From positions 106,006 through 130,005 of the forward strand of contig JBFXDX010000005.1 of the NCBI GenBank assembly GCA_050180705.1: a stretch of DNA of 24,000 nt, given 5' to 3'. This stretch comes from Bacteroidales bacterium. Lineage in GTDB: Bacteria > Bacteroidota > Bacteroidia > Bacteroidales > Tenuifilaceae. The translations under genes and the position numbers were made by a program. This document shows, in pieces, positions 1,169 to 21,094 of the stretch (within the stretch, counting starts at the first letter, position 1; the number at the start of each line of letters is the position of its first letter). A model generated the notes under the pieces. That model was not told where the DNA came from. It was given only the letters and a program-made list of their open reading frames with translations, and ran no database searches.

Positions 1169-4100
1169 TTTTTTAAGAGGTCTTTTAACACATTAGCTAA
1201 TGCTGCAATATTTAATGTTGCATCATTAGAAAGTTGAGATTTTATCAATTGCTCAATATTACCAACTTCTTTTAACTTTGTTTTTGGAAAACGAACTAAT
1301 CGTTTTTGAATGCCTTCAGCAAAAGAACTCATTTCGATACCAAGTATATTTTCTTTGGTCTCATCTAAATCAACTTTGGATATGTTGGTTAAACTGTCAA
1401 GTTCTAGTATTAAATTTTTGAATTTATCATAAAGCAATAATTCTTCTTCATCCTTAATCGTTTCAAGTGTTTTACCTATTACTGAATGAGCAATTGAACT
1501 TAACCAAGCGTTTCTGTCATCTAATTGTGAATCTAAACGCTGAATAAATGTTTTTTGATAAGGCAAGCATAAGTGCTTCTTTAACTTCTTATAACGATTT
1601 TGAAACTTTGGTTTATATTCTTCAAAAGGTAAGGATTCTCCTATGAAATCATTTAATATGAAGTCTTCAAAGCGATTCAGTAGACCATCATAACTTGTTC
1701 TAAGTTCACGGATAGATTCTTGTAACTTAATGATATACTCTTGAAGTTTATCTTTTGATTTTTGAAGTGATTCAATACTGTAACCTAAAGCCATTGGAAA
1801 ATCTTCAAAGAATGATTTTTCAGGGTCTTTAGAGTTTGCTATAGCCTCACGAATTGCTAGAGTTTCCTTTTTTAATCTTTTAGTAGTTCTCGAATATTCA
1901 GAAAGCCCTCGATAAAAGACTAAGAATGGCTTTATTGTCTCTATGAATGTTTGATTATCTAGTTTGTTCTTAGAATTCTGATTTAGAAAAAGGCGATAGC
2001 TATTAAATATATCTAATTTGACTCCTTCAATATCAAAGGATTTAATCTCATAGTTTTCTGGGTACTTTATTACAAGTTCCAACACCTCATCAGTTAAATA
2101 TGGTATGTACCCACTTTCTCCAAACAATGCAAAGTCATCTCTCTTGATGAAAAGAAATGATGCTATCCAGAAATCTATTAACCCTTGTTTTAGCTTAAAA
2201 GGCTGTTTTGTTAATGGTTCTACAAATTCTGAAACTAACTTTCTATTTTGCTTTGCACTTTCTATGAAATCGATGGAGTATTTCCAAAGATGAATGAAAG
2301 AAGAGTTTTGGGTTACTTCTGTATTGAAGTTTATATCATCAGAATATAAATTAATACCATTCTCTTTAAGTAACGTAAGGTATATAGTTTTTTCAGGTGG
2401 AAATTTATTACTATCAAAGCCTAAGTCTGGTTTATTCCAATTATCAACCAATGCACGTAAATATGATTTCTTAGCCGTATAAATAGAACTTGAAATCTTA
2501 TGCTTATTAACCAATTCATTCTTAAATATTGGTGCTTTTGAGTAGACTTGATGACATATTTGTGAAATAAATTTATTGAAATCTTTTTTGCTGGAAATAG
2601 AAACCTCCTCACCTTTGAAGAACCATTTAACTTCTGAGTTTCTTTGATATAGGTTGTTCAATATGTAATGAGTAAGAAGGTTCTGTTGGTGTTGCAATAT
2701 GTTGTTTAGTTCTCTTAGGGCTATCTTATCGCTCTCGTTCTCATCAATCACTTTTCTTGTTTTTTCAATCTCAAAAAGTTGATTTTTTATTATTTTAGAG
2801 TTTTGATAAAATCCATATATAATTGCCTCCTCTTGTTTATATGATTCTCTTTTTATTTCGCTTATGTCAAGTTTTTCACTAAAGATAAGGTTAATGAATC
2901 CGTCTACTTCATCTTTAGGTGCTTCAGATATAGGATATTCAGTGATTCTGAACTCAAACATTCTGGGTGTGCCATTCAGATAAGAATAGCTTTTTGCAAC
3001 AATAGAGGGTAATTGATAATAACGATTTAGTAAAGTGGCAACGTCATTTATCTCATTTACCTTATTCCCTGCCTCAATTAATGCAGATGAGATATCAAGG
3101 TCTGTACCTTCAGAAATAATGAATCGTTTACTATAATTCCTGTACCTTATTATTTTTTTGGATTCTAAGTCATCGATTAGTTTTTTTGCATTCTCTATAC
3201 CTAAACAGATATTTAAGTAATTTTCTAAAAAGTTAATTCCTAAATCTGAACCAGACGCAGAGGTTATATTCAGTAACCCAATTGTTTTAAGTATTCTTGA
3301 ATAATCGTTTATGTCTGAATCAAATGTTCTTTCTGCTAACTCTATTGAATTCTTTATAGCAGACCAAGATGCGAAGTCAGGATTGTAGCGTGAATTGATA
3401 AATGAGTAAAAATTGAATAAAAGGTAATCAAATACGCAGGACGCATTGTAAAATGGATTTGTTTTTTTATCAAAATTATTTATTCCTGTGTGGTCGGTAG
3501 ATTCAAGAAATGAAAACAGAGACCGTTCGTTTTGACCGTATTTTTGTAAGGAAAGTGTAAGAATGTTTGCAGCCACCAAATCTAGAGGGTATAGTTTTGT
3601 TGCTATTTCAGAAGCGTATTCTGAACTGATATTGAAAGCTTTTGTTCTCTTTATAGTTGATACTGTTGATTTAATTAGGCTTTCCTTCTCCTTATCAAAT
3701 GAACCTTGCTGCAAATGCTCTGCTGCTAAAAAAAGTAATTGCTCGACAGGCTCATTAAAAACAATTTCACGAAACCTTCCTTTAATTTTTGTCCACTCTT
3801 GCTTTTGTGTGTTGTTAAGAGAATAAGCATATGCATCAAAATTTTGGTGGACAGTTGTAAGTAGGATGATATTGTAATCAGGGTTATTGACAAACTCAGA
3901 AAGTTGCTGAATAAAATATAGTTCTTTCTCTGGGTCTTGCTGAGATGCATATTCTAGAAACTTCCCAAATTCATCAACCACTAACACAAGCAGGGGATTT
4001 TTATCTCCCAAACCATGATAAAGATTGTAAATTTCAGACAGAATACTTTGTGTAAGGTGTTTTGAATTGTTTATTTCAAAATAATCTGCAAAGTGATTTG

Positions 4101-4386
4101 TCATAGACTTGTATTCGCCTACAATGTTGATAATCTCAACCTTTGGATTTTTAAGAATATTTAGTGAGAAAAAATTTTTCCTATTTGTGATACTTTGCTC
4201 TAATGCCCATAGAAATGATGACTTCCCTGTACCATAAGAACCAATAATGTTAAAAGACCTTATACCCTTTTTAAAGTCATTAGCAATTTGATTCACCACA
4301 CTTATTGAATTTGGTGTCGGTATATAATTTAACTCTCTTGTTATATCTCTAATAATATTTGTAGATGTAGTATATTTAGTTTGCAT
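1165..4386 (-). CDS. sspC: Large P-loop NTPase, SspC-like
   Basis: 1073-aa ORF. Walker A GSYGTGKSSF lies near residue 50, with a Walker B-like LLVLVVDEFGKF. It overlaps the upstream DUF4007-like gene by 11 nt and the downstream PAPS-reductase-like gene by 4 nt. The SspC name rests on this gene order, not on a recognised SspC-specific motif. Confidence 0.6.
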   Translation of the reverse strand: MQTKYTTSTNIIRDITRELNYIPTPNSISVVNQIANDFKKGIRSFNIIGSYGTGKSSFLWALEQSITNRKNFFSLNILKNPKVEIINIVGEYKSMTNHFADYFEINNSKHLTQSILSEIYNLYHGLGDKNPLLVLVVDEFGKFLEYASQQDPEKELYFIQQLSEFVNNPDYNIILLTTVHQNFDAYAYSLNNTQKQEWTKIKGRFREIVFNEPVEQLLFLAAEHLQQGSFDKEKESLIKSTVSTIKRTKAFNISSEYASEIATKLYPLDLVAANILTLSLQKYGQNERSLFSFLESTDHTGINNFDKKTNPFYNASCVFDYLLFNFYSFINSRYNPDFASWSAIKNSIELAERTFDSDINDYSRILKTIGLLNITSASGSDLGINFLENYLNICLGIENAKKLIDDLESKKIIRYRNYSKRFIISEGTDLDISSALIEAGNKVNEINDVATLLNRYYQLPSIVAKSYSYLNGTPRMFEFRITEYPISEAPKDEVDGFINLIFSEKLDISEIKRESYKQEEAIIYGFYQNSKIIKNQLFEIEKTRKVIDENESDKIALRELNNILQHQQNLLTHYILNNLYQRNSEVKWFFKGEEVSISSKKDFNKFISQICHQVYSKAPIFKNELVNKHKISSSIYTAKKSYLRALVDNWNKPDLGFDSNKFPPEKTIYLTLLKENGINLYSDDINFNTEVTQNSSFIHLWKYSIDFIESAKQNRKLVSEFVEPLTKQPFKLKQGLIDFWIASFLFIKRDDFALFGESGYIPYLTDEVLELVIKYPENYEIKSFDIEGVKLDIFNSYRLFLNQNSKNKLDNQTFIETIKPFLVFYRGLSEYSRTTKRLKKETLAIREAIANSKDPEKSFFEDFPMALGYSIESLQKSKDKLQEYIIKLQESIRELRTSYDGLLNRFEDFILNDFIGESLPFEEYKPKFQNRYKKLKKHLCLPYQKTFIQRLDSQLDDRNAWLSSIAHSVIGKTLETIKDEEELLLYDKFKNLILELDSLTNISKVDLDETKENILGIEMSSFAEGIQKRLVRFPKTKLKEVGNIEQLIKSQLSNDATLNIAALANVLKDLLKK

Positions 4387-5254
4387 AGTAGTCCTTTAAT
4401 ATTGAAATAGCTGTAGGTTTAGTCTTAAATTGTAATTCTTTAATCCCAGCATGGTCATTAAAAACAAGAAAGGGATACTTAACTGTAAGATTTTCAATTT
4501 TGGATAAGATTCCACTTTTATTAATGGCGAAAATTGAACCAACGCTACTATAGTTCTGCTCAATACTGTTTATGTTTACAGATAAATCGAAAGAATCATC
4601 ATCCAAAATAGAATACAAAATAACTTCATCGGGAATATCTTGTCTTTCACTGTTCTCTATAATATAAACATCTTCTTTCCCCTTACTGTATGTTTTTACT
4701 AAGTCAAGTTCCGTGAGTAATCCCGAAAATGTGTCTTCTTTGTCTTTACTTTGTGCATTAGACCGTATATACATCTTTGAGAAAACATAGAAATCTTCAG
4801 TTAAGGTTTTCTCATTTATCTGAAATGACTTTTCAATCTCAGCCTTACGTTTAAGAAACCCTATAAAATTATCCCTAGTGAATTCTATCTTTTCCTTGCG
4901 AAGCTCGTTGAAAACAATCGAATAAATAGAAGCAAAGCCCCTTTTAACCAGTTGATAGTGTAAAATCCAAATACTTGCATCATCTTCTAGATAGGGGTCG
5001 AAACCATCATCAGATAAAAGACAGTGTGCAAAATCAGTTAATTCATCGTTAACTGTAAGAATATTAAATGCTTTCATCCAAAATCGAATTGAACTTACCA
5101 TATTCTTTCCTACTCCTAACTCAACCACTGCATCTTCATCACTAAAAGATTTGTTTTTGTTCACAAAATCATATCCTTTTTTGAGCCATAGATGCCTGCA
5201 CTGAAAAGACTCGTGTCCTGAGAAAGTAAACTTGATATTTGGAATTGTACTCAC
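4376..5254 (-). CDS. sspB: DUF4007-like protein, SspB-like
   Basis: 292-aa ORF with a GTG start; the frame closes 21 nt upstream and holds no ATG. The N-terminal FSGHESFQCRHLWLKKGYDF...LGVGKNMVSSIRFW matches the DUF4007 signature as I remember it. It is the first gene of the three-gene overlapping set. Confidence 0.65.
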   Translation of the reverse strand: MSTIPNIKFTFSGHESFQCRHLWLKKGYDFVNKNKSFSDEDAVVELGVGKNMVSSIRFWMKAFNILTVNDELTDFAHCLLSDDGFDPYLEDDASIWILHYQLVKRGFASIYSIVFNELRKEKIEFTRDNFIGFLKRKAEIEKSFQINEKTLTEDFYVFSKMYIRSNAQSKDKEDTFSGLLTELDLVKTYSKGKEDVYIIENSERQDIPDEVILYSILDDDSFDLSVNINSIEQNYSSVGSIFAINKSGILSKIENLTVKYPFLVFNDHAGIKELQFKTKPTAISILKDYYAN

Positions 5255-7000: not shown

Positions 7001-7588
7001 TCAAAAACTCAAAACATCATATGTTTGCATCAGTTCCTCTTTAGCAATTCCCAAATACCTTCTGGTAATCGCTGGGTTGCTATGATTAAACAACTGGCTC
7101 AATTTAATCAATGCCAGTTCCGCATTACTCCCACTTCGATTGAAAATTTCACGACCAAATGACTTACGTAAAGAATGGCTACTGAAATTCTTAATTTTAA
7201 GATTATACTTGATTTTTAGCGATTTCAATATCACATTAATTCTTTGAATTGAGAATACGCAACCTTTCTGGCTAATGAATATGAATTCATCTTTAGATTT
7301 TGGGTTAATTTGGGTGTAACAATCCTTAATGTGACGTTTTAGCTGGGAATTAATCTTAATTTCCCTGTTCTTCTTAGTTTTGCCTTCGACCAACATAAAT
7401 TCATCCTTGTCAAGTACTTGCTCCCAATTCAGTTTTAGAATATCCGAAATCCTAAGCCCCCAAAAAGTACCACATGCAATTAGTAATGATATACGATAGT
7501 TTTCATCATTGTATAGATTCCTGATTAAATTCATCGCTTGATTCCATTCAAGGCAGTCTGCTGTAGTTTGGCTAAATTTTGCACTCAT
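7001..7588 (-). CDS. Tyrosine-type site-specific recombinase, catalytic domain only (195 aa)
   Basis: The catalytic residues appear in order: WGLRISDILKLNW (Arg I), EGKTKKNREIKI (Lys), SSHSLRKSFG (His-x-x-Arg), NHSNPAITRRYL (His/Tyr nucleophile region). There is no N-terminal SAM-like DNA-binding domain. Confidence 0.85.
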   Translation of the reverse strand: MSAKFSQTTADCLEWNQAMNLIRNLYNDENYRISLLIACGTFWGLRISDILKLNWEQVLDKDEFMLVEGKTKKNREIKINSQLKRHIKDCYTQINPKSKDEFIFISQKGCVFSIQRINVILKSLKIKYNLKIKNFSSHSLRKSFGREIFNRSGSNAELALIKLSQLFNHSNPAITRRYLGIAKEELMQTYDVLSF

Positions 7589-7936: not shown

Positions 7937-8473
7937 TTATAAGAAATCATCATATAATGATTCAATTTTTCTCTTTCTCAGTATTTGCTTTGGTGTTGGG
8001 GGAATGATTGTTATTTTTAATTCGTAGTATATTGTTTTCAACTCATTGATAAAAGTCGAGAAATTAATTATTGCTTTTTCATAATCAACATTATCAATTA
8101 ACGCTTTAAACTTAACATGTAACTCATCAATCTTTGGCATTTCAGTAGAAAAAACATAAGCATGCTGATTTTCCTCAATCTGGTGGTAGAGAATAATAGC
8201 ATGCTCAGCGTTTAGTACATATTTTATGTGGTTTATTGTGAGATTGTTTGAATTAATAACATTAACCAAGTCTCTGTATACGTACATTACAGATTTAGAA
8301 GTGTAGGTTCGTCTTTCTGGTGAATTATCTTTGGTAATCAGTACTTTGAATTCTATTCCACTCCAACTCCAGCTCATCCTATAAGTGTTATTATCAGATT
8401 TTCCAACCAAAGTAATGTAATCTAGCTCCCCAACATTAATAGTTATTAATTCTCGCAACTCTTTCTCTGTCAT
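7937..8473 (-). CDS. Hypothetical protein (178 aa), downstream of the retron RT
   Basis: This long ORF is co-directional with the RT and 286 bp downstream of it. I see no recognisable motif. The C-terminal tail is basic (PKQILRKRKIESL). Confidence 0.6.
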   Translation of the reverse strand: MTEKELRELITINVGELDYITLVGKSDNNTYRMSWSWSGIEFKVLITKDNSPERRTYTSKSVMYVYRDLVNVINSNNLTINHIKYVLNAEHAIILYHQIEENQHAYVFSTEMPKIDELHVKFKALIDNVDYEKAIINFSTFINELKTIYYELKITIIPPTPKQILRKRKIESLYDDFL

Positions 8474-8759: not shown

Positions 8760-9872
8760 TTAATTACCTATCGAATAAATACAGTTTGACTTTTCAAACT
8801 TATTCTTAAATATCAAATACAACGTATCATCCTTCCCTCGAATTTGACCAATAAAATTGACATAACCTCTTAACCGATTTAGGAATGTTACTCTCATCTC
8901 ATCCGTCAGTATATGGCTTTTATAATGTTTTTTTACAGCTTCGTCAAGTCCATTCAAGGAAAGGTCATGTATCATAGCTCTAACCTTTTTAAGCAATATA
9001 CGGTCAACGTTGACTCTGTCATTTACAGTTAAGCCTGTTACTGTTTGCTTACGATTCTTGGACTGTATTCTTAGCTTCTTTTGATTTATAGAAAAGTTGT
9101 TTTTCGTAATAATGTTAATTATATCAAGTAACTCATCATGAGATATCTTTCTACTTGAGGAAAAGGTCAAATCATCTGCATAACGAGTGTATGCAAAGCC
9201 ATGGTCTTTGGAAAATTCAATTAGGTCTTCATCTAGTACTCTACATATGAAATTCGAAATAACTGGAGAGGTTGGTGCTCCTATTGGTAATCTACCATTG
9301 AGTGTCGTTAATAATGTAATAGCATTGGTAATTTGTTCATCGAAATTAAAAATGTCAGATAAAAGCAATTCTTTAACTTGTTTTGCTCTAATGCTCGGAA
9401 AAAAGTCCTTTAAATCTATGTTAAGAACGCTCTCTCTACCAACATGTATTTTGGCATTGGCAGCAATATTACAATGTGTACCCAAATAATGTGGATTAAT
9501 AACAAATCCGTGAACTTCTTTTGGTTTTATGCATAAATAGTAAGCTTGCAAGTAGTAGTTTAACCGCTTCTGGATTCTTTTCAATTCGTTTGACGGAGCA
9601 TAGATTTCTCTATATCCGCCTTTTTTCTTGGGTCGATGAAAATGAATGTAGGCTGGATTATTAATTACATTTTCAACTTCACTAAATGTGGCATCTAGCA
9701 ACTTGCAGAGTTCATAAGGAGTATCAATTCTAAGTAACTTTAAGGCATTGTTTTCATGGTAATAGGGTTTAGAACCATGATTAATTTCCCTTACGAGTTT
9801 CCCATTGAAGCATAGGTTTGCTTTATTAGGACTAACTTTTTTAATGGTAATAATTTCTTGTATAGTTTTCAT
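8760..9872 (-). CDS. Retron-type reverse transcriptase
   Basis: 370-aa ORF with RT motifs in order: KKKGGYREIYAPSNELKRIQKRLNYYL (motifs 1-2), VHGFV...NAKIHVGRESVLNIDLKDFFPSI (motif 3 / A), LPIGAPTSPVISNFICRVLD (B), YTRYADDLTFSS (YADD, motif C), and the retron-typical VTGLTVN after the catalytic core. No endonuclease or maturase extension is present. A structured non-coding region with terminal inverted repeats lies immediately upstream. Confidence 0.9.
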   Translation of the reverse strand: MKTIQEIITIKKVSPNKANLCFNGKLVREINHGSKPYYHENNALKLLRIDTPYELCKLLDATFSEVENVINNPAYIHFHRPKKKGGYREIYAPSNELKRIQKRLNYYLQAYYLCIKPKEVHGFVINPHYLGTHCNIAANAKIHVGRESVLNIDLKDFFPSIRAKQVKELLLSDIFNFDEQITNAITLLTTLNGRLPIGAPTSPVISNFICRVLDEDLIEFSKDHGFAYTRYADDLTFSSSRKISHDELLDIINIITKNNFSINQKKLRIQSKNRKQTVTGLTVNDRVNVDRILLKKVRAMIHDLSLNGLDEAVKKHYKSHILTDEMRVTFLNRLRGYVNFIGQIRGKDDTLYLIFKNKFEKSNCIYSIGN

Positions 9873-9883
9873 TTAAAAAAAGA

Positions 9884-10052
9884 TGAGCCGTTGCCAATTA
9901 TCCAAGAATTCTTAAACGCAATTTGCGAGAAGCGGAGCGTAGTGAGCATCGCAGTGAATTGCGTACTTCGCTATCACCACTCCTTTGTGGGTTGCAGGAA
10001 CACAACCGCATAGCCTTGAAAAATGACTCATAATTAGTTAAGCAACGGCTCA
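9884..10052 (-). ncRNA. Putative retron msr-msd non-coding RNA locus
   Basis: A perfect 11-bp inverted repeat, TGAGCCGTTGC (9884-9894) and GCAACGGCTCA (10042-10052), brackets 169 nt directly upstream of the RT start (9872). This is the geometry of retron a1/a2 repeats. The interior is more G+C-rich than its surroundings. On the minus strand it holds several hairpins: GGTTG-N8-CAACC, GCGAAG...CTTCTCGC enclosing about 35 nt, CGCAAATTGCG, and AAGAATTCTT. The exact msr/msd ends and the branching G cannot be set by eye. Confidence 0.7.
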
Positions 10053-10063
10053 ATATTGTTAAA

Positions 10064-11110
10064 TTATAAAGGACTATTATCTATTTCATCGAGTCTATAA
10101 CTTGATATGGAAAATTCACGCTTCACTAATTCGAAGTCTTTAAACTTTGTAAAGTCTTTATCGACCATAAGCTTAATGTCATCAACTCTTCCATTCCTGT
10201 TCTTTGCAATTAATACCTCTGCAACGCCAGTAATGTTATTTCCCTCTTCATCCTCCTGAAATCCATAGTATTCTGGACGATGAATAAAAATTACTTTATC
10301 TGCATCCTGTTCGATAGCTCCAGATTCACGCAAATCTGATAGCTGAGGTCGTTTATTTCCACCTCTGCTTTCAACAGCACGACTCAATTGACTAGAAGCT
10401 ATTACGCACACATTATTGTCTTTTGCAATATTTTTTAGTTCTCGGCTTATATAGCCTATCTCTAAATCTCTGCTATTACGGTATCTGTTAGAACTCATCA
10501 TCTGCAAAAAATCAACCATGATTATTTTAATACCATCCTCTTGAATATGCTTTAAACATTGTGATTTCAATGCAGAGATTGAACAATTGCTACTATCGTT
10601 AACTAGTATTCGGTGTTTTTCTAGTTCCTTTTCAGCATGTAGTAGTCTAGTTTTATCTAGAGGGTTTAGACTATTCTGGATTATCTTATTTACAGCAACT
10701 CCTGTAAGTGCAGAGATAAATCGATAAGTGAGTAATCTTTGAGATAAATCAAAGGTAAAGTAGAGTATGGGGGCTTCAATAGAAACATTCAAGGCTAAAG
10801 ATACTAGGAACTGCGTTTTACCCATTGAAGGTCGCCCTCCAATAACAACAAATTCACCCAAGGACAATCCCCCTATTGCCAAGTCTAAGTCGGTAAAACC
10901 AGTCTTAATAAGGTCGGGGCTTAAAGTCTCGCTCTGTAATGTTTTCAGATTTTCTTTAGCTAAATCAAAAATAGACTTTGACTCTTTGATGTTTATATCC
11001 TTCATCTCATATTCGTACACCAGTCTCTTTATCTGATGCATGATTTCAGCCTCATCCAATCCTTGATTGTTGATTACTGACATTATGTGTTGTAAGATAT
11101 CCTGTTTCAT
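10064..11110 (-). CDS. DnaB-family (RecA-fold) ATPase lacking the DnaB N-terminal domain
   Basis: 348-aa ORF. IKTGFTDLDLAIGGLSLGEFVVIGGRPSMGKTQFLVSLALN covers the linker and Walker A. IIMVDFLQMM is Walker B. SRELKNIAKDNNVCVIASSQLSRAVESRGGNKRPQLSDLRESGAIEQDADKVIFIHRPEYY is the DnaB C-terminal signature. Only about 65 residues precede the linker, so the primase-binding N-terminal domain is missing. The stop codon lies 11 nt from the retron inverted repeat. Confidence 0.85.
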   Translation of the reverse strand: MKQDILQHIMSVINNQGLDEAEIMHQIKRLVYEYEMKDINIKESKSIFDLAKENLKTLQSETLSPDLIKTGFTDLDLAIGGLSLGEFVVIGGRPSMGKTQFLVSLALNVSIEAPILYFTFDLSQRLLTYRFISALTGVAVNKIIQNSLNPLDKTRLLHAEKELEKHRILVNDSSNCSISALKSQCLKHIQEDGIKIIMVDFLQMMSSNRYRNSRDLEIGYISRELKNIAKDNNVCVIASSQLSRAVESRGGNKRPQLSDLRESGAIEQDADKVIFIHRPEYYGFQEDEEGNNITGVAEVLIAKNRNGRVDDIKLMVDKDFTKFKDFELVKREFSISSYRLDEIDNSPL

Positions 11111-11218: not shown

Positions 11219-11226
11219 CAAATTTA
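11219..11226 (-). promoter_or_regulatory. Candidate -7 promoter element (TAAATTTG) upstream of the DnaB-like/retron block
   Basis: The minus strand reads TATAAATTTG, which contains the TAnnTTTG motif, about 110 nt upstream of the DnaB-like ATG at 11110. I found no clean -33 TTTG at the canonical spacing. Confidence 0.25.
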
Positions 11227-11266: not shown

Positions 11267-12013
11267 CTAATACTCTATAACATCTTGAACAGTATCAGTT
11301 TTTTCGTATTCCTTGTTGTTGTAGTACATCTTTTCTGGGACGTAAATGTGGCTAATCTTCCATCTTCTATCCACTGCATTTAAACCACCAACAGTCTGAT
11401 AGTCGATAGGTATGTAATTGCCTTTAGGCATATCATTTCTATGGTCTATAATGTAATACATGTAACCAGAGGGAATTGCTCCTTTCCAATATACAAGGCA
11501 AAGAGCGTGTCCAATAACCTTGGTTCGTCCAAATCTTGCAATATAGGGCTCTAAACCCCAAAATCTTAACAAACCAGCAGTCATTAAAGCCCAATCGTCA
11601 CACTTCCCTCCTCCATACTTCATAAATCTGTCAGGCCGAAGAATTGTGTCACATATGAAATACCTGTACTTGGCTACTAACATTTTCTGGAAAGATTCAA
11701 TCTCAGGCCAACTTAGAGAAGCATCCCTGTTTAAATCGGCATTGATATACATTTGCTCTAACTTCTCATCATGCAAATAGGTGGCATTTCTGAAAACAAA
11801 GGTGTTGACCTTAATGTATAGTTCATATCTGGATGTAAGTGTGATATTAGAATCTAGAAGAGTATAGGTCTTTTTGTTATTTTTAGTTTTAATAGTATAT
11901 CTATGGTTACGATATAAAAGAGTGTCTTGGGAGAATGCGCTAAATTTAAATAATATGAAATATATTAAAATTAAAAGTATAATTGTGAATTGATTTTTTT
12001 TTGAATAATACAT
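11267..12013 (-). CDS. Secreted or membrane-anchored transglutaminase-like cysteine peptidase-fold protein with an EF-hand-type loop
   Basis: 248-aa ORF with an N-terminal hydrophobic segment (FTIILLILIYFILFKFSAFSQ). A Cys-His-Asp arrangement typical of the transglutaminase core is present: GGGKCDDWALMTAGLLRFWGLEPYIA, GHALCLVYW, YIPIDY. DLNRDASLSWPE (nt 11702..11737) fits the 12-residue EF-hand Ca-binding loop at positions 1, 3, 5 and 12. Confidence 0.6.
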   Translation of the reverse strand: MYYSKKNQFTIILLILIYFILFKFSAFSQDTLLYRNHRYTIKTKNNKKTYTLLDSNITLTSRYELYIKVNTFVFRNATYLHDEKLEQMYINADLNRDASLSWPEIESFQKMLVAKYRYFICDTILRPDRFMKYGGGKCDDWALMTAGLLRFWGLEPYIARFGRTKVIGHALCLVYWKGAIPSGYMYYIIDHRNDMPKGNYIPIDYQTVGGLNAVDRRWKISHIYVPEKMYYNNKEYEKTDTVQDVIEY

Positions 12014-12139: not shown

Positions 12140-14263
12140 TTAATGACAATATATTCTTTTTAATTCTTTAATCATAATGTCAATCGTGTTGGGAGAAATT
12201 TTACTACTACTAGTCGCATTATTTTTCAAATGGTTAATTAAATCTTCGTTTGAATGTTTGTCTAATTTTACCAAACTACCATCTTTTCTTTTATACCCAT
12301 TTTCTCGATGTACTTTTTGAATCCATTCTATTTCAGTTTTTACTTTTTTTAATTCATTTTTTGGAATGAAAGAAGAAATTTTATCAAAAGCACTATAGTC
12401 ATAAATAAAAAGTTGATTCTCATTATCATCAAATAACATTGATGTTTGTTTTGGAATTGGTTTTTGTGTTATTTCTTCATCGATTGTTCGATTTGATTTA
12501 GTTTTCAAATAAGCAATTACAGCCTTCCATTTCCCAATTGTACCTTTCGGAGGCTCTATACGTTCTAAGGCTTTTATATAGTCATCCGAAATATCACCAC
12601 GGTACAATCTAGTCATCTCTGTCTTATAATACTTCTTGTCCTTTTCCTTTAGAATTGAAAAATCAGATACATTAATTTCAATATCTTGAATTAAAATGGA
12701 AATGACATTGTTTGAAATATCTTCATTCTTTCCATCTTTATTAACTTTTGTTTCAACTAAAATCGATTTTGGTTTTTCTTCTTTTGGCAAAATTCCAATC
12801 AATTCGATATTATGAATTTGTTTGAATAGAGTTTTGTAAATTTTGGACAAATAATCTATATCTGACTCAAAAAGACCTGCAGTAAATACCCTTGATAAAT
12901 TAGCAAACCCACAAATAGAACCATAAAAGCCAAAAGCAAGGCGACCATCCTCAATTTCAGATAAAATTAGAAAATCAGTTAATTTTTCAAAATCATCTCC
13001 TTTTAATAGAAATGAGGCAATAGCAGATATCAAACCAGTATTCCATTGGATGTTAAACGCTTCCTGTCCAGCAATATTTCGTCTTAAACTATTTAGGTAT
13101 TTATTTGCATCGTGAGTTTTCCATTCTTCTTCACCGACATAACTCTTAATTTTTCTAGTTATCTCATCAGCTAGTCTTGACCTTTCAGTACTAAACGAAG
13201 ATTCTGTAATGTCAGAAGAAACAAAAATATCATTAATTAGGTTTTGATACATTTCTCTCGTTTCTAGTTTTGTAATAAACGAGTCTTCGTATTGTGTCAA
13301 TCTATTTCCAACTAAAGCGATGCTATTCCATTCAAATTTGGGTTTACTAATATTACTGTTTTCAATCATTTTATTACTCCAATTTTTCAACTCTTGTAAT
13401 GAAATTTCATATTTTGCTCTATCAGTAAAGGTTTCGAGATAACTTTCGAAGTTGTATCTATTTGGAATTCTCATTCCAAAATTGTTATATATTTCATTCC
13501 AAACATTGTTGTATTGGTCTGGCAGAATCGCCCTTAAATATTCTTTTACATCTTTATATTGATATGAAGTGATTTTTTGTAAAAGATATTTTAGTTCATC
13601 AGTTTGTTGCTGAGTTCCTTTTCCCGAGACACTATTAACAATAGCAGAAGAGAGGTTGATGGTCTTGTTAATAACATTTGCTAATTGAACGCTTTCTTTC
13701 GATTTTGCATTATTTGCAGCAATTAAATAGGCATAAGCAAACCCTTTGATTTTGTTTATTTGATTATCTTTTTCTATTTCTTCATAATTAAGGTTTTGAA
13801 TATCATATATGCCATCTAAATTGTATTCTCTACTCTCTGATTGAAAAACAAAAATACTATTCCAATATAATTTGACTAATTTTGTTTCAGCACTTGATTC
13901 AGAGCGTGAAATAATAGTTCTTTTATTGTCAGGAGTTAAGAAATATATTTTGGAATTAAAAGGATTCAAGTATATGGTTCTGTCGGTCTGCCAAATTTCA
14001 TTTTGTATTCTTTTTAAGCCATCCAACTCAACATCAATGTCAACTTCTATTACCATTGGATAATTGACTAACTCACTGTTAGAAATCTTAAATTCGGGGA
14101 ACGCTTCAAAGAGAAGTAATGAATTATTAAAACTATTCAAATCAACTTTCTCGAAAGTTTTATACCCAAAGTTTCTTTGTAAATAAAACCCATGCGGAGA
14201 TATTGATTCACAAGACATTATATTATTAAAGTTCAGAGAACTGGTTGGAATATATAGTTTCAT
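12140..14263 (-). CDS. Large hypothetical protein (707 aa), last gene of the DUF1848/MTase/helicase operon
   Basis: The ORF is uninterrupted and starts 12 nt after the helicase stop. I recognise no Walker, nuclease or other catalytic motif. The N-terminus is MKLYIPTSSLNFNNIMSCESISPHGFY. No transmembrane segment is obvious. Confidence 0.85.
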   Translation of the reverse strand: MKLYIPTSSLNFNNIMSCESISPHGFYLQRNFGYKTFEKVDLNSFNNSLLLFEAFPEFKISNSELVNYPMVIEVDIDVELDGLKRIQNEIWQTDRTIYLNPFNSKIYFLTPDNKRTIISRSESSAETKLVKLYWNSIFVFQSESREYNLDGIYDIQNLNYEEIEKDNQINKIKGFAYAYLIAANNAKSKESVQLANVINKTINLSSAIVNSVSGKGTQQQTDELKYLLQKITSYQYKDVKEYLRAILPDQYNNVWNEIYNNFGMRIPNRYNFESYLETFTDRAKYEISLQELKNWSNKMIENSNISKPKFEWNSIALVGNRLTQYEDSFITKLETREMYQNLINDIFVSSDITESSFSTERSRLADEITRKIKSYVGEEEWKTHDANKYLNSLRRNIAGQEAFNIQWNTGLISAIASFLLKGDDFEKLTDFLILSEIEDGRLAFGFYGSICGFANLSRVFTAGLFESDIDYLSKIYKTLFKQIHNIELIGILPKEEKPKSILVETKVNKDGKNEDISNNVISILIQDIEINVSDFSILKEKDKKYYKTEMTRLYRGDISDDYIKALERIEPPKGTIGKWKAVIAYLKTKSNRTIDEEITQKPIPKQTSMLFDDNENQLFIYDYSAFDKISSFIPKNELKKVKTEIEWIQKVHRENGYKRKDGSLVKLDKHSNEDLINHLKNNATSSSKISPNTIDIMIKELKRIYCH

Positions 14264-14275
14264 AAATTTAAAATT

Positions 14276-15331
14276 TTAAATGTCTGTAATTTCGTCAAAT
14301 TCAGTTGTTTTATAAAAGTTTTCTGGTACATTACCGTTAATAAATGAAGTTAAATCTCCACTATGCATAATGTATAGATTTTTATACGTTCTTGTCATTG
14401 CAACATATAATGATTTCTGTTTGCTATAACCTTTGTCATCATTTTCAATTGTGCAATCAGGTAAAAATACAGTTTCAAATTGTAATCCTTTAGCTGAATG
14501 ATATGTCATTAATTTGGGATTAGACGTTTCAAAGTCTAACGTATTTCTATCATTTTTCCAATTATTTCTATCTCTAAATTGGACTTCATTATTTATTCCA
14601 TTTTGAGTTAGCACTTTACTCGCTTTTTCAACTTGTTCATTATGTGGAAATAATATTCCAACATCAGTCATATTATTATTTTTAATAATTCTAGCAATTG
14701 CTTCAATTTGCTTATCATAGTTTGGATAAAAAATAATGCGAGGGATAGAATTCTCTTTACTTTTATATGTTCCTTCGTTATATCTAGTTCCCACACCAAT
14801 ATAGTTTTCAGTAATTTTGGCTATCGGTTTTGGCAACCTATAATTAAAATATAAGGGAAATTCTGACAATCCTGATTGATATGCTATATCTCTAACATCT
14901 TGCGTAGACTTTAACCCATCATATATTGACTGTGCAGTGTCTCCAAAAAAGAAAAATTGTTTACGAGTAGCCTTCTTGAAATCGTCAATTTCTTCTTTTG
15001 TGAAATCTTGGATTTCGTCAACAATAACATAGTCTGATTGAGGACACCCTAGTTTATTTTTCCAGTGCCAATGATAGTAAAAATCATTTTTTAGCTCTAA
15101 GGTCTTTCGCCCTGAATTCATATAACTACTTAACGATTTTGTAAAAACAATAATTTGATAATCATTGCCTTTTTCTTTTTGAATCTGTTTTGCTTTATGT
15201 AATGCAATGACTGATTTACCGCTACCAGCGCAACCAGATACAACCATTGATTGGTCTAGAGTTCTGTATAATAAATTTCTTTGATAATCATCTAAATCTG
15301 ATTCTTTAATAAAAAAATCCTTCTTTGCCAT
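14276..15331 (-). CDS. Minimal SF1 (UvrD/PcrA-like) helicase-fold ATPase, 351 aa
   Basis: All core SF1 motifs are present in order: VVSGCAGSGKSVIAL (I / Walker A), YVIVDEIQDF (II), FFFGDTAQSIYD (III), FNYRLP (IV), MTYHSAKGLQFETVFL (V), LYVAMTRTYKNLYI (VI). The protein is too short to carry the 1B/2B accessory domains of UvrD or Rep. Confidence 0.85.
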   Translation of the reverse strand: MAKKDFFIKESDLDDYQRNLLYRTLDQSMVVSGCAGSGKSVIALHKAKQIQKEKGNDYQIIVFTKSLSSYMNSGRKTLELKNDFYYHWHWKNKLGCPQSDYVIVDEIQDFTKEEIDDFKKATRKQFFFFGDTAQSIYDGLKSTQDVRDIAYQSGLSEFPLYFNYRLPKPIAKITENYIGVGTRYNEGTYKSKENSIPRIIFYPNYDKQIEAIARIIKNNNMTDVGILFPHNEQVEKASKVLTQNGINNEVQFRDRNNWKNDRNTLDFETSNPKLMTYHSAKGLQFETVFLPDCTIENDDKGYSKQKSLYVAMTRTYKNLYIMHSGDLTSFINGNVPENFYKTTEFDEITDI

Positions 15332-15341
15332 ATCTTGGTAA

Positions 15342-16187
15342 TTAAATTTTATAATTATCTTTAACTAAATAGCCATTACTTTTCTGACAATATTTTGCGG
15401 AATTATAATCTTTCCCCAAAATGTTTATGTATGAACAATTGTTATCGAAAACATGAATTTTGTTAGCAAAACATGAATTTGTCATAATTCGATATGTTAC
15501 CTTGGTTTTATCATTTTTCTTTATTGAATGAGAAATGCTGAAAGTACGTTGAGTAAAGCAATTCCCTGAACACTCCTTTTCAAATTCACCACATGAAATA
15601 GGTATAAGTGTTTTAAAACCACTTAATTCATTAATTGCCCTATTGGCTTGTAAATTCATTAAAATAGGATTAAAGGTTGTTCCAACTTTTGTAGTCACAT
15701 CTAGTAAAAGGAACAGTCCAACTTGTGATAACCTTGGCAAACTAAAAGTTGTTAAGTCGTAATAAAAATCAGTGTTCCCTTCTGCAATTAGTTCGCAACC
15801 CATTTTAGATGACATTATAAAATCATATTGTGAATCTTTAATCCATTCTAGGTCTTTTGTCGTATGTATGGATTGACACTCCGTTTTTAAGGTTATTGTA
15901 AAAGTTGTTCTTTTGGAAAATTCTTCTACAAAATCGCTTAAAACTATGAGTGCATTAGAGTGACCATCTAAAGCAAGTATATTTACATTTTTAATCGCTA
16001 GGCTGTATTTATTAATAGCAACCAACAAACCCATCAGATTTCCACCTGTGCCACTCCCAATATCAAGAATATTTATTTCTTCCTTTGTAGCTAAACTCGA
16101 ATAACATTCATTCTCAAATATATTGTCGAAAACACAAAAACTTTCTCCATAACTTCTTGGGAAATATGTTCCGAGGTAAACCCTCAA
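15342..16187 (-). CDS. Class I SAM-dependent methyltransferase domain (3' part of a frame-disrupted gene; the ORF-track start is a TTG)
   Basis: The SAM-binding motif I is INILDIGSGTGGNLMGL, followed by an acidic motif II region (NILALDGH). The codon at 16185-16187 is TTG, and the same frame stays open without any ATG, GTG or TTG up to 16559. See the next feature. Confidence 0.75.
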   Translation of the reverse strand: MRVYLGTYFPRSYGESFCVFDNIFENECYSSLATKEEINILDIGSGTGGNLMGLLVAINKYSLAIKNVNILALDGHSNALIVLSDFVEEFSKRTTFTITLKTECQSIHTTKDLEWIKDSQYDFIMSSKMGCELIAEGNTDFYYDLTTFSLPRLSQVGLFLLLDVTTKVGTTFNPILMNLQANRAINELSGFKTLIPISCGEFEKECSGNCFTQRTFSISHSIKKNDKTKVTYRIMTNSCFANKIHVFDNNCSYINILGKDYNSAKYCQKSNGYLVKDNYKI

Positions 16188-16650: not shown

Positions 16651-17739
16651 TTATCTTCCTGTAATAGTTTCAGACAATTCGCTAGTGTTTTTAATATAAT
16701 TATAATTTTCTGAAACAACTCTTTTGCTCGTATTGGCATAGCAATATTCGCACAAATGAAGGCAAGTATTATATTCCCCAATATCTTTACTAAAAATACA
16801 ACCACAAAGTTCACGTTGTCCTTTATCTTTAATATTCTTTTTCTTAATAATCTGAGGTTGTGTATTGAAAAATAAATCAGCATTTACTTTCTCCACGCCT
16901 AAAAAATCCATAAGGATTCTATCGTTTGAGAAGAGCTTAATCATTAAATCATCATCCACGCACTTATTGTGTTTAATGCCATATTTTTCAAGTGGTATTT
17001 TTTCTGCACAAGTTCCAATCTCAAAATTCCAATTTTTATTAAGTTGCTGGAGCCCTATGGCAAAATCATCCATTAGTCTCTCATTAAATTCTTGATATTT
17101 AATAGAGTTCTTTCTAAGGTTGTTTTGAACTTTTTTATAAAGGTTTATGTCTGCAAAGCTAAAAACCATTTTTTCGGTATGATTCTTTAGTTGGTTTCCT
17201 ATGTTCTCAACTTTTCTCAAAAGTTCATCTACTCCAATCGTATCAGTTAGTATTAAGGGGTCAAATCTCCATATTACTTTGCTCCTACCAATCTTTTCGG
17301 AAAGTTCAATAAAGGTTTCTATTCTTGAATTTACATTGGGAACATTAGGCTCAAGTTTTTCCTTGTCGTAATCATTGAGGGTAAACTGGAAATAATAATT
17401 TATTCTCTTCTCGTCAATAACACCAAGATGCTTGATGATTGGTTTGGGGTTTTTCGACCAGAATACAATTAGCCTTGCTTTACTGAACGAAACATAAAGA
17501 GGAACACCATTAAAAGGATTTTTCCATTTTACATATCCTTCATTTATCCTTTGAATCAACCAATCGGAGTAAAATGCGGGTATATCAGTTGAACGGCTAG
17601 CAGATATAATAATTGGGGCTTGAGCATCAACAACTTCACCATCTTTCTTCTTAATTTTTATCTTGTCCCAATTCATTCGATATGCTGTTAGTTCACGTAA
17701 AAATACAAAAAGATTAAGTGTTACAAAAGAAATTTTCAT
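16651..17739 (-). CDS. DUF1848-like protein with a C-terminal Cys cluster (putative Fe-S / radical-SAM-related)
   Basis: IIISASRSTDIPAFYSDWLIQRINEGYVKWKNPFNG, YYFQFTLNDY, VIWRFDPLILTD and the C-terminal CGCIFSKDIGEYNTCLHLCEYCYAN match the DUF1848 family pattern as I remember it. The likelier start is the internal ATG at 17676 (MNWDKIKIKKKDG...). The 17739 ATG adds a hydrophobic 21-aa leader, although it directly abuts the stop of the upstream 88-aa ORF (TAAATG). Confidence 0.8.
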   Translation of the reverse strand: MKISFVTLNLFVFLRELTAYRMNWDKIKIKKKDGEVVDAQAPIIISASRSTDIPAFYSDWLIQRINEGYVKWKNPFNGVPLYVSFSKARLIVFWSKNPKPIIKHLGVIDEKRINYYFQFTLNDYDKEKLEPNVPNVNSRIETFIELSEKIGRSKVIWRFDPLILTDTIGVDELLRKVENIGNQLKNHTEKMVFSFADINLYKKVQNNLRKNSIKYQEFNERLMDDFAIGLQQLNKNWNFEIGTCAEKIPLEKYGIKHNKCVDDDLMIKLFSNDRILMDFLGVEKVNADLFFNTQPQIIKKKNIKDKGQRELCGCIFSKDIGEYNTCLHLCEYCYANTSKRVVSENYNYIKNTSELSETITGR

Positions 17740-18301: not shown

Positions 18302-19954
18302 ATGGATGATTTAAGTAGATTTAGAAAATTTGTGAAAATTAAGCCAACGTCAAAAAATGTTGGAAATAAGAATGTTTGGCTCTATACACGAGTGTCCTCC
18401 TCGAACCAAACAGACAATTACTCCCTCGAATATCAAAAAGAAGAAGCCTATAAGTACGCACAAAGTAAGGGCTTAACAATTACTGATGTGTTCGGAAACA
18501 CAAACGAATCCGCTTCGGACGACTTTACCCGAAAAGAATTCACAGAACTTATACAAAGAGTTCGAAGGTCAAAGTCCAAACCCCATGCAATTCTTGTTTA
18601 TGTGATGAACAGGTTTAGCAGGACAGGAGGCAATGCAATTGCAATTGCAACAGAACTAGTAGATGAACTGGGTGTTAATTTAATTGAAGTGTCAAGCGGA
18701 GTCGACACATCAACAAAAGAGGGAAGAAATATTATCCATCAAAAATTATTAGAAGCTAATAAGCAGAATCTGGATAGATTAAGTCACACTTTGCCTGGAA
18801 TGAAAAAATTAATTCAATCGGGTAAAAATTTAGGTAAAGTTCCATTTGGTTATGACGTATTTGGCCCAAAGGTGGCTGATTTTGAGAAACGAAGTATCGT
18901 GCAAAAAATAGTGATTAATGAAGATGGGAAAAAACTTAGAATGGCATGGGAATGGAAAGCACAAGGGATGCCCGACTATAAGATTATTGAAAATTTAAAA
19001 ACCTTGGGCATAGTAATAAGAAAACAGAAGCTTAGTGCTATCTGGAAGAAGGCTTTCTATTGTGGGATTCAGACCAATGCATTGCTTGAAGGAATATGTA
19101 TTAAGGGGAACTGGGAGCCCCTTATAAGTGAAGAATTATTTTGGAAAGTTCAATCAATGCTAAATAAAAACCATCACGGCTATACAGTTGTAAAAGAATC
19201 CGAAGAGAGGCCGCTATCTGGTTTTATATATTGTTCAAAATGTGGGAAAAAGTTAACTGGATACCATAATAAAAAGAAGAATCTTCACTACTATAAGTGC
19301 CAGACCTGTAAATCTGTCTCAATGAATGCAAGTACTCCAAAGAGATACCCAAATCATATTGGCGCAAACAATTTGTTTGTAGAAGTTCTAGCTCTCCTTA
19401 ATTTAGAGCCTAAATATGAAAAATTGTTTGAGTTGCAGTTAAAAAAAATATTCAATTGCTTTGAGGACTCTGAAAAGCAGGAAATAGCCATTTTCAGAAA
19501 GCAACTTGCAGAACTAGAGAAAAAGAAGAACTCACTAGAAGAGCGGTATGCTTTTGGAAACATTGAAAAAGAAATTTACGACAAGTACAGGACTAAAATT
19601 GAAGAAGAAATACTTGATTTAAGAACTAAATACGAAATACCCCAAATTGACACATCTAACTTTAGAGTGGGTCTAAATAAAGCATTGTCGTTTATTCAGA
19701 ATATCAGTAAATATTGGCTTTCAACAAGTGTATTAAACAAAGAGAGAATACAAAAATTACTGTTCCCTCAGGGATTAACATTAGATGTAGAAAAAAGGCA
19801 ATATCTAACCTCAGAAGTAAATACTTTGTTTATGTTAAAGTTAGATTTAATGGGACTTACAGAAGAGGACAAAAAGAAACTCCCCATCGTTTTTGATGGG
19901 GAGTCCGATTTAGTAGCGGGGACAGGACTCGAACCTGTGGCCTTTGGGTTATGA
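18302..19954 (+). CDS. Large serine recombinase (serine integrase)
   Basis: The N-terminal resolvase domain carries the catalytic Ser context VWLYTRVSSSNQ, plus SLEYQ and MNRFSRTG. A recombinase domain (PFGYDV) follows, then a zinc ribbon (CSKCGKKLTGY...YYKCQTC) and a coiled-coil (LAELEKKKNSLEERYAFGNIEKEIYDKYRTKIEEEILDLRTK). The last roughly 13 codons (VAGTGLEPVAFGL) are encoded by the antisense strand of the tRNA gene. Confidence 0.9.
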   Translation: MDDLSRFRKFVKIKPTSKNVGNKNVWLYTRVSSSNQTDNYSLEYQKEEAYKYAQSKGLTITDVFGNTNESASDDFTRKEFTELIQRVRRSKSKPHAILVYVMNRFSRTGGNAIAIATELVDELGVNLIEVSSGVDTSTKEGRNIIHQKLLEANKQNLDRLSHTLPGMKKLIQSGKNLGKVPFGYDVFGPKVADFEKRSIVQKIVINEDGKKLRMAWEWKAQGMPDYKIIENLKTLGIVIRKQKLSAIWKKAFYCGIQTNALLEGICIKGNWEPLISEELFWKVQSMLNKNHHGYTVVKESEERPLSGFIYCSKCGKKLTGYHNKKKNLHYYKCQTCKSVSMNASTPKRYPNHIGANNLFVEVLALLNLEPKYEKLFELQLKKIFNCFEDSEKQEIAIFRKQLAELEKKKNSLEERYAFGNIEKEIYDKYRTKIEEEILDLRTKYEIPQIDTSNFRVGLNKALSFIQNISKYWLSTSVLNKERIQKLLFPQGLTLDVEKRQYLTSEVNTLFMLKLDLMGLTEEDKKKLPIVFDGESDLVAGTGLEPVAFGL

Positions 19955-19986
19955 GCCCAACGAGCTACCAACTGCTCCACCCCGCA
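19914..19986 (-). tRNA. Initiator tRNA-fMet (anticodon CAT)
   Basis: The minus strand reads TGCGGGGTGGAGCAGTTGGTAGCTCGTTGGGCTCATAACCCAAAGGCCACAGGTTCGAGTCCTGTCCCCGCTA, and I folded it by hand. The acceptor stem is 2-7/66-71 with a U1-U72 mismatch. The D stem is GAGC/GCTC with A11:U24. The anticodon stem carries three consecutive G:C pairs (GGG/CCC) flanking the loop CTCATAA. The T arm is ACAGG TTCGAGT CCTGT. These are hallmarks of a bacterial initiator tRNA, and the sequence closely resembles E. coli tRNA-fMet. CCA is not encoded; the next bases are CTA. Confidence 0.9.
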
Positions 19987-20223
19987 ATACAATATTTTTG
20001 TGTGACTTGTTATCGTTTTAGCGGGTGCAAATATAAAGTGCTTTTATGATATTACCAAATTTTATCCAAAAAAATCTCTCAAATATTACGATGTATTTAA
20101 TCTGATGGGCAATAGCATTTGTGTAACTCACAATCTTTGCTAAAATTAAATCAAAACAGAATCTTTTAAAGAACGTTTTTAGAATTCAACTATATTTGTG
20201 AGTGATTCAAAAAATAATTATCC

Positions 20224-21084: not shown

Positions 21085-21094
21085 GGAGGGGCAG

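Follow-up and report, generated by a model that had tools for sequence, protein, structure and literature searches.

What could a shortened relative of the replicative helicase DnaB be doing directly in front of a retron? The question is raised by a locus of a Bacteroidales bacterium of the Tenuifilaceae (GenBank assembly GCA_050180705.1), which was analysed within a stretch of 24,000 nucleotides (nt), here called the window (contig JBFXDX010000005.1, positions 106,006 to 130,005 of the forward strand; coordinates are those of the window unless another locus is named). An open reading frame (ORF) of 348 amino acids (aa) at 11110..10064 on the minus strand represents the DnaB-like gene, which is followed on the same strand by a noncoding RNA (ncRNA) with the msr and msd parts of a retron and by a stand-alone reverse transcriptase (RT). 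We are highly confident that the DnaB-like gene is a functional component of this retron and its conserved partner. As a reading of the whole, we lean towards a three-part retron consisting of DnaB-like protein, msr/msd ncRNA and RT, in which the DnaB-like protein is the partner, probably the effector, and would work as a replication poison.

The order DnaB-like gene, ncRNA, RT was found in 14 of 14 distinct related loci. Spacing was tight in every locus, the DnaB-like stop codon preceding the a1 inverted repeat of the ncRNA by 8–15 nt and the RT starting 9–20 nt past the a2 repeat, while the genes flanking the module vary from locus to locus. All seven DnaB-like relatives with 53–66% identity are located directly upstream of ncRNA and RT (DnaB_C gene of 344–365 aa, gap of 183–245 bp, RVT_1 gene of 365–378 aa, all on one strand), and three of three independently chosen relatives of the RT have a DnaB_C gene directly upstream. 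The same order is present in a more distant Flavobacterium locus (L001; 44% identity), and two degenerate variants of the DnaB-like gene, described below, likewise precede ncRNA and RT. The comparison group comprised 90 loci, each with some other DnaB_C gene (31–45% identity). Of these, 80 stem from a metagenome scan with the family alignment, which caught only universal DnaB motifs, i.e., ordinary DnaB loci at 34–45% identity; in a genome scan L001 was the only true relative, the ten other loci being generic DnaB_C loci. A retron RT beside the DnaB_C gene was found in 0/90 control loci, and a motif composed of a1 and the second msr hairpin occurred in none of the 90 (640 kb), versus 18 of 18 RT-linked loci of the family.

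DnaB-like protein and RT also co-evolve: their pairwise identities correlate (Mantel r = 0.68, p ~4e-4). At 90% identity, either protein falls into at least 120 clusters, and 19 contigs longer than 5 kb, matched by size, are common to both lists of homologues. No member of the DnaB-like family was detected in 50,697 phage and 72,556 plasmid records, the best identity there being 44% or less, and the hairpin motif of the ncRNA gave no matches in the viral contigs of IMG/VR. A first-pass annotation, made by a model from the sequence alone, had read the gene as a possible retron accessory and had proposed to look across genomes for co-occurrence of its homologues with retron RTs; the linkage is borne out by the loci and controls just described. 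The opposite outcome which it had considered, namely a gene found mainly without RT neighbours and serving in phage or plasmid replication, did not emerge.

The protein appears to be derived from a replicative helicase of the Bacteroidota type. Residues 68–325 match Pfam DnaB_C (E = 5.2e-79), and all expected motifs were found: Walker A (GGRPSMGKT, with lysine K98), Walker B (IIMVDFLQ, with aspartate D200), SQLSR, the SDLRESG loop for single-stranded DNA (ssDNA), and the arginine-finger motif K303/R305. An AlphaFold model, for which 38 homologues served as input, had a mean predicted local distance difference test score of 85.7; its top PDB matches in Foldseek were full-length DnaB proteins of Vibrio, E. 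coli, Aquifex and Geobacillus (E ~1e-31, 31–33% identity). The first-pass annotation had recognised the RecA-fold C-terminal domain of DnaB from its Walker A, Walker B and SQLSR motifs, and this identification holds. A match of the protein to the PADLOC model "mad8" (E = 1e-4) is confined to the Walker A region; it was disregarded.

The NCBIfam profile TIGR00665 aligns residues 9–326 with profile positions 117–433 of 435. Since the alignment begins at position 117, about 115 N-terminal residues of DnaB are missing, which correspond to the globular head of the primase-binding collar (the N-terminal domain); the score of 276.7 bits is under the family cut-off of 385.25. The entire RecA-fold domain has been retained, preceded by the linker helix and a short remnant of helical structure. 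The first 65 aa (10916..11110, minus strand) comprise a remnant of the DnaB helical hairpin (helices 2–13 and 20–37), as judged from the secondary structure of the AlphaFold model and from family conservation, and the linker helix at about aa 47–59 (10972..10934, minus strand). The latter was located with phmmer, which aligned residues 41–327 with residues 159–442 of Bst DnaB, i.e., linker helix plus C-terminal domain. In DnaB this helix docks one subunit onto its neighbour, and the N-terminal segment which includes it is conserved across the DnaB-like family. It had been stated in the first-pass annotation that about 65 residues precede the linker and that the N-terminal domain is absent; the truncation is confirmed, but the linker helix is contained within those 65 residues.

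Is such a protein still a helicase motor? The position of the catalytic glutamate of DnaB (E241 in Bst DnaB, by alignment) is occupied in the window by D121 (codon at 10748..10750, minus strand). Aspartate is present at this site in 117 of 120 family members and also in L001, versus glutamate in 89 of 89 DnaB_C controls without a retron. Otherwise, the Walker A lysine, the Walker B aspartate, SQLSR, the SDLRESG loop and the lysine/arginine finger pair are conserved in the family. A broader sample, the best 150 matches in a library clustered at 50% identity, included 108 short forms, with aspartate in 76, glutamate in 23 and another residue in nine; of the 19 full-length forms among these matches, 18 had glutamate.

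Several short forms have gone further and have lost both the Walker A lysine and the arginine finger. In the variant P0283 the lysine is replaced by glutamine and the finger arginine by asparagine; in P0275, which is present in two samples, the replacements are alanine and threonine, respectively. These genes (L106, 137–1195; L107, 2714–3805; L108, 34–1125) read GMGQS or GMGAT in Walker A and AKNNNG or AKNTNG at the finger. Both variants have kept the SDLRESG loop and the C-terminal Pro-Phe tip, and in both cases the same ncRNA comes next, with an RT gene beginning behind it. The msd hairpin of L107 has a different sequence but maintains its pairing. Since ATPase-dead variants persist in retrons with an ncRNA and an RT start, ATP turnover would seem to be dispensable in some lineages.

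The C-terminal tail (aa 328–348, ending in SSYRLDEIDNSPL; 10067..10129, minus strand) follows a family consensus RLDEI(D/E)xxPF, an acidic tip with terminal Pro-Phe (PF), and the PF terminus is found in 85 of 120 members. It was considered as a retron-specific mimic of the tail of single-stranded DNA-binding protein (SSB), an idea which was rejected, as 41 of 78 complete full-length DnaB controls (about 500–530 aa) end in the same acidic tip. Because these controls carry it, the PF tip was evidently inherited from host-type DnaB and is no invention of the retron. In the control loci L012–L091, full-length DnaB proteins of this size, which probably stem from Bacteroidota, commonly have an acidic D-x-P-F terminus, which resembles both the C-terminal tip of SSB and the tail of T7 gp4; we know of no described function for such a tip in DnaB. 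Taken together, the motor chemistry of the family appears to be weakened or lost, and the elements for ssDNA binding and subunit docking persist. The change from glutamate to aspartate, the ATPase-dead variants and the host-type tip make the protein look like an ssDNA-binding mimic of DnaB rather than a motor.

The element beside the DnaB-like gene is a real retron. After the stop codon (10066..10064) and a spacer of 10 nt, the a1 repeat (TTGAGCCGTTGC) extends over 10053..10042; it pairs with a2 (GCAACGGCTCA; 9884..9894, minus strand), which ends 11 nt before the start codon of the RT. The first-pass annotation had placed an a2-like repeat 11 nt from the stop codon; the offset is right, but in the sense of the RNA this repeat is a1. 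Of the 190 nt between the DnaB-like gene and the RT, 170 nt are taken up by the ncRNA from a1 to a2 (10053..9884, minus strand). Its mean column identity in 11 distinct loci amounts to 78%, as against no more than 44–66% identity of the flanking proteins to those of the window. The structure consists of a closing stem of 11–12 bp formed by a1 and a2, a 7-bp extension with AAUUAU/AUAAUU, two msr hairpins and the msd hairpin. In the alignment, 96.4% of the cells of this structure are paired, versus 35–46% in slid controls, and ten pairs show compensatory changes, versus one to three; the observed score was reached by none of 500 shuffles. The window sequence alone folds with a z-score of -4.2. 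Within the closing stem, columns 14/177 covary (UA in six loci, CG in five). An Rfam scan of the ncRNA gave matches at chance level only and no retron family.

Stem-loop 2 of the msr (GGTTGT-GTTCCT-GCAACC; 9990..10007, minus strand), which according to alignment and covariation is nearly invariant, is probably the recognition hairpin for the RT. An invariant G at 10029, just after the extended closing stem, is a candidate for the branching G in priming of multicopy single-stranded DNA (msDNA). The msd hairpin (9918..9962, minus strand) has a variable, covarying lower stem, in which six pairs have changed on both sides (helix 4; e.g., column 111/151 with AU in four, UA in four and CG in two loci), and a nearly invariant upper part with a loop of 12 nt. 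Such constancy of the upper hairpin is unusual among retrons and could reflect a specific binding site; that the loop equals the footprint of about 12 nt of a DnaB hexamer is a suggestive coincidence only. An alternative msd pairing, GGAGUGG/CCGCUUC, which was proposed by RNAalifold with eight sequences, was dropped with 11 sequences in favour of the hairpin at 9962..9918, since L103 and L001 cannot form it and compensatory changes are lacking.

The RT (370 aa; 8760..9872, minus strand) carries the motifs NAKIH (NAxxH) at aa 139, YADD at aa 231 and VTG at aa 278. A PADLOC run, as suggested in the first-pass annotation, identified it as a retron RT, with best matches to RT-Protease_XI (5.5e-92, 307.3 bits), RT-Toprim_I-C (2.5e-91, 305.1 bits) and RT-TIR_XII (1e-81), all restricted to the RT part; the accessory protein was matched by no PADLOC model. 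Pfam detected RVT_1 only in the 370 aa, and no protease or other extra domain. The RT thus appears to belong to a clade whose members otherwise bear fused effectors (types XI, I-C and XII). As the spacing is tight in all loci and no terminator was found in the terminator scan, including the region between the DnaB-like gene and the RT, co-transcription of DnaB-like gene, ncRNA and RT is plausible. The first-pass annotation had argued that there is no room for an independent promoter; the spacing is indeed tight, but a promoter could sit within the coding region. A promoter scan, with a model not built on Bacteroidota promoters, gave 24 promoter-like sites versus 21.4 expected by chance. A match to the Bacteroidetes -7 consensus (TAAATTTG) at 11226..11219, upstream of the DnaB-like gene, was given no weight, such matches being common in AT-rich DNA.

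How could these parts act together? The RT would copy the msd hairpin into msDNA, as the hallmarks of the retron suggest. By analogy with Eco2 and other retrons, RT and msDNA would then hold an oligomer of the DnaB-like protein inactive, in the simplest case by offering it the single-stranded msDNA. A phage activity which degrades or alters the msDNA would release the protein, and the freed ATPase, slow or inactive, could clamp ssDNA at replication forks or compete for the partners of host DnaB. Replication of host and phage would be halted, resulting in abortive infection; this last step is the least certain one, and as a replication poison the protein is put forward only tentatively. ATPase-dead alleles of DnaB are dominant-negative, and RecA with the exchange E96D is toxic, combining tight binding to DNA with an ATP hydrolysis slowed about 100-fold; because of these precedents such a poison is at least plausible. 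The idea of a decoy or poisoned helicase subunit, which had been voiced in the first-pass annotation, gains indirect support from the exchange of glutamate for aspartate and from the persistence of ATPase-dead variants. A more specific version would have an attenuated ring, or a fragment of a ring, parked on the msDNA, which would be single-stranded and closed at both ends, i.e., by the 2'-5' branch at the 5' end and by the RNA hybrid at the 3' end. Damage to the msDNA by a phage would free the ring, which would stall replication by clamping ssDNA or by competing for partners through linker helix and PF tip. This would be the first immune effector made from a replicative helicase; in this detailed form the proposal is rather doubtful.

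Several points weigh against the poison. Glutamate is retained, at deeper divergence, in 23 of the 108 short-form representatives, and aspartate can still serve as catalytic base, so that most members may be working, if slower, ATPases. The ATPase-dead lineages that were checked number only two and are on short contigs which show just the N-terminus of the RT. Formation of mixed hexamers with the host helicase is uncertain, because the identity to full-length DnaB is only 31–45%. A literature search for this lineage found no experimental study.

Other roles of the DnaB-like protein have to be considered. It could be a sensor or decoy, a mimic which binds helicase loaders, hijackers or inhibitors of phages, with RT and msDNA executing or triggering the harm. 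The host-type linker helix, the surface of the RecA domain and the PF tip have been retained and would be recognisable by partners or phage proteins, motor activity is apparently dispensable in some lineages, and guarding of host machinery is a known theme of retrons, as with Ec48 and RecBCD. However, only two genes and an RNA are conserved, and with a bare RT of 370 aa no other toxin is visible; furthermore, RT and msDNA act as antitoxin or cage in characterised retrons (PMC12916289, PMC12548924). A sensor or decoy therefore appears improbable.

A further possibility is a helper helicase, which would open up the duplex of a1 and a2 or the RNA-DNA hybrid, or would travel with the RT, in the making or maturation of msDNA, the DNA product being the output of the system. 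The helicase of T7, gp4, travels with the polymerase, and its tail docks on T7 DNA polymerase; the acidic, phenylalanine-ending tail of the DnaB-like protein is reminiscent of it. The motifs of Walker A and B, arginine finger and ssDNA loop are intact in nearly all close members, and the gene is directly upstream without an intervening terminator. To our knowledge, however, other retron RTs need no helicase and work alone. The catalytic base has been changed throughout the family, variants without the Walker A lysine or the arginine finger persist in retrons, and the PF tip, inherited from full-length DnaB, is not specific for RT-linked forms, all of which makes a helper function hardly probable. 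Finally, the short DnaB could be the replication gene of an integrated mobile element which came to lie beside a retron by chance: the island is bounded by a serine recombinase, a shortened integrase is located downstream of the RT, and another integrase is near the related locus L100. Synteny with constant spacing amid changing neighbours, the control loci, the Mantel correlation and the absence from phage, plasmid and IMG/VR records effectively exclude this explanation, which we regard as extremely improbable. The partnership with the retron, with the DnaB-like protein as probable effector, is thus the reading which we prefer.

To what extent has this system been described? Mestre et al. (2020) distinguished 13 retron types without a helicase, the word "helicase" never occurring in their article, and described RT clade 8 solely with fused TOPRIM, TIR or protease domains (PMC7736814); PADLOC v2 also contains no accessory model for the DnaB-like protein. 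A preprint by N. Toro of 14 May 2026 (bioRxiv 10.64898/2026.05.14.725207) reports a candidate lineage TXI_noncan_h with type XI-like RTs that have no protease, in which DnaB_C proteins were present in 20 of 29 loci; hosts are Bacteroidota and Bacillota, and a compact ncRNA flanked by a1/a2 is found 22–104 bp upstream of the RT. In this preprint the meaning of the DnaB_C association is called unclear, and ATPase motifs were not analysed. The novelty claimed in the first-pass annotation is thus sustained for the 13 canonical types, but was pre-empted by the preprint, where a candidate lineage is already defined by its association with DnaB_C. One relative of the window system (L100; RT 57% and DnaB-like protein 53% identical) is contig JADKCP01, which is listed in Table S2 of the preprint as "typeXI, low"; the window system would therefore appear to belong to TXI_noncan_h or to lie directly beside it. 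Common to both are an RT without protease for which type XI models give the best scores, a DnaB_C protein encoded separately beside it, a compact a1/a2-flanked ncRNA just upstream of the RT, and Bacteroidota as hosts.

The preprint and the present analysis differ in some respects. DnaB_C is said there to be "mostly downstream" (14 of 20 loci), whereas the DnaB-like gene is upstream in the order of transcription in all 14 loci examined here; the offsets in the preprint may be contig coordinates, since in the record of L100 the locus runs on the reverse strand. Also, the 20 loci of the preprint compare with at least 120 clusters in this study. Five Bacteroidota rows in Table S2, labelled "type1-C3 low", list DnaB_C, and type I-C3 is rated in the text as of low novelty (bioRxiv 10.64898/2026.05.14.725207); these rows fit the near tie of the XI and I-C models for the window RT, and the DnaB_C-linked family was probably split over two labels and hence undercounted. 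The pairing of DnaB_C and retron is already published computationally; the present analysis contributes the strictness of the gene order, the signature of glutamate to aspartate, the ATPase-dead variants that occur in nature and the host type of the C-terminal tip.

Canonical type XI (PMC7736814) shares with the window system the RT domain, its best PADLOC match, and RT clade 8. It differs in that its protease is fused to the RT, whereas the window RT of 370 aa matches profile positions 5–318 of 506 and lacks the trypsin-like protease, the presumed effector being encoded separately and derived from DnaB; the window clearly has an ncRNA, while the 2020 study found none for type XI (PMC7736814). 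The closest characterised relative of the RT is Eco2 (Ec67; type I-C, a fusion of RT and TOPRIM), with a match to the NCBIfam model retron_Ec67_fus of 7.7e-72. The effector of Eco2 is caged by the msDNA until DenB, a phage nuclease, frees it (PMC12916289); sequestration of a toxic effector by a complex of RT, ncRNA and msDNA is the general model for retrons (PMC12548924). The fused TOPRIM nuclease of Eco2 cuts tRNA, in contrast to the separate RecA-fold derivative of DnaB found here, which has no nuclease domain.

Compared with DnaB itself (Bst, PDB 4esv; E. coli, 7t22), the protein shares the linker helix and RecA-fold domain (31–34% identity, Foldseek E ~1e-31), the Walker A and B, SQLSR, SDLRESG and arginine-finger motifs and the PF tip of full-length DnaB of the Bacteroidota type, but it lacks about 115 N-terminal residues and has aspartate instead of the catalytic glutamate. 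Unlike dnaB, the DnaB-like genes are sporadic, are located in defence islands and always adjoin a retron RT. This sporadic location and the ATPase-dead variants argue against the protein being the sole essential helicase of its genome. DnaB_C-only helicases of plasmids and phages, e.g., RSF1010 RepA and the ATPase domain of SPP1 G40P (PDB 3bh0), also have a hexameric RecA-fold core without the full N-terminal domain of DnaB, and 3bh0 aligns with the model of the DnaB-like protein with a target-normalised TM-score of 0.90. Those are, however, active replication helicases of mobile elements, in contrast to the attenuated or lost ATPase motifs of the DnaB-like family and to its absence from the phage and plasmid collections searched.

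The module sits in a defence island. At one end of the window, on the minus strand, PADLOC identified genes of the Ssp system of phosphorothioate modification and defence, namely SspD (65–1168), SspC (1165–4386; 1526 bits) and SspB (4376–5254), after which an ADP-ribosylglycohydrolase follows; SspA and any Ssp restriction partner are not encoded in the window. Downstream of the RT, also on the minus strand, are an orphan ORF of 178 aa (7937–8473) and a protein of 195 aa which consists of the catalytic domain of a tyrosine integrase only (7001–7588); both were rejected as parts of the system, being conserved in no related locus. Directly upstream of the DnaB-like gene, a transglutaminase-like protein (DUF553; 248 aa, hydrophobic N-terminus) is encoded at 11267–12013 (minus strand). 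Of the related loci, only the closest one (L092/L093) has it too, with 78% identity (L092, 4095–4838) versus 66% for the retron proteins; all others lack it. Farther upstream, still on the minus strand, are an orphan of 707 aa (12140–14263), a UvrD-like helicase of 351 aa with GajB-like PADLOC matches (14276–15331) and an orphan of 281 aa (15342–16187). L092/L093 and L103 also have UvrD-like genes, two or three genes upstream of their DnaB-like genes and with different partners (2CompART/2CompARG and HSP70-like, respectively); the UvrD-like gene and the orphans may be a separate, undescribed defence module which travels with the retron.

A DUF1848 protein (16651–17739, minus strand) matches the PADLOC model RTasDUF1848 (E = 1e-41), a candidate for defence-associated RT systems, and is about 7 kb away from the only RT of the window. 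A large serine recombinase of 550 aa, after which come an M23 peptidase and dxr (18302–22249, plus strand), probably marks the border between defence island and core genome. Related loci adjoin genes for Abi_2, type I restriction (HsdR), KAP NTPase, Fic and HipA. In L001 (Flavobacterium sp. RSSA_27) a second retron-like RT with 33% identity is encoded at 751–1701, about 5 kb upstream of the module. Complete genomes with the module include those of Flavobacterium branchiophilum (VFPJ01000001.1) and Pedobacter glucosidilyticus. In one metagenome genome (L104, 1191–6128) the module is found just after rpsF-rpsR-rplI, a neighbourhood which holds the housekeeping dnaB in many bacteria; this is a single case and maybe due to chance.

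The retron effectors known so far comprise nucleases, enzymes which consume NAD or target nucleosides, membrane proteins and proteases. If the proposal is true, an effector derived from the replicative helicase would extend this repertoire to direct attack on the replication fork, and a housekeeping part of the replisome would be shown to have been recruited into immunity. The exchange of glutamate for aspartate, the ATPase-dead variants, the nearly invariant msd loop and the host-type tip make the question of ATP turnover directly testable. The name "replicative DNA helicase", which is often given to DnaB-like proteins in databases, is a misannotation worth correcting. Bacteroidota include genera from the gut as well as fish pathogens, and few defence systems of this phylum have been studied; the family described here is large and is distributed across it.

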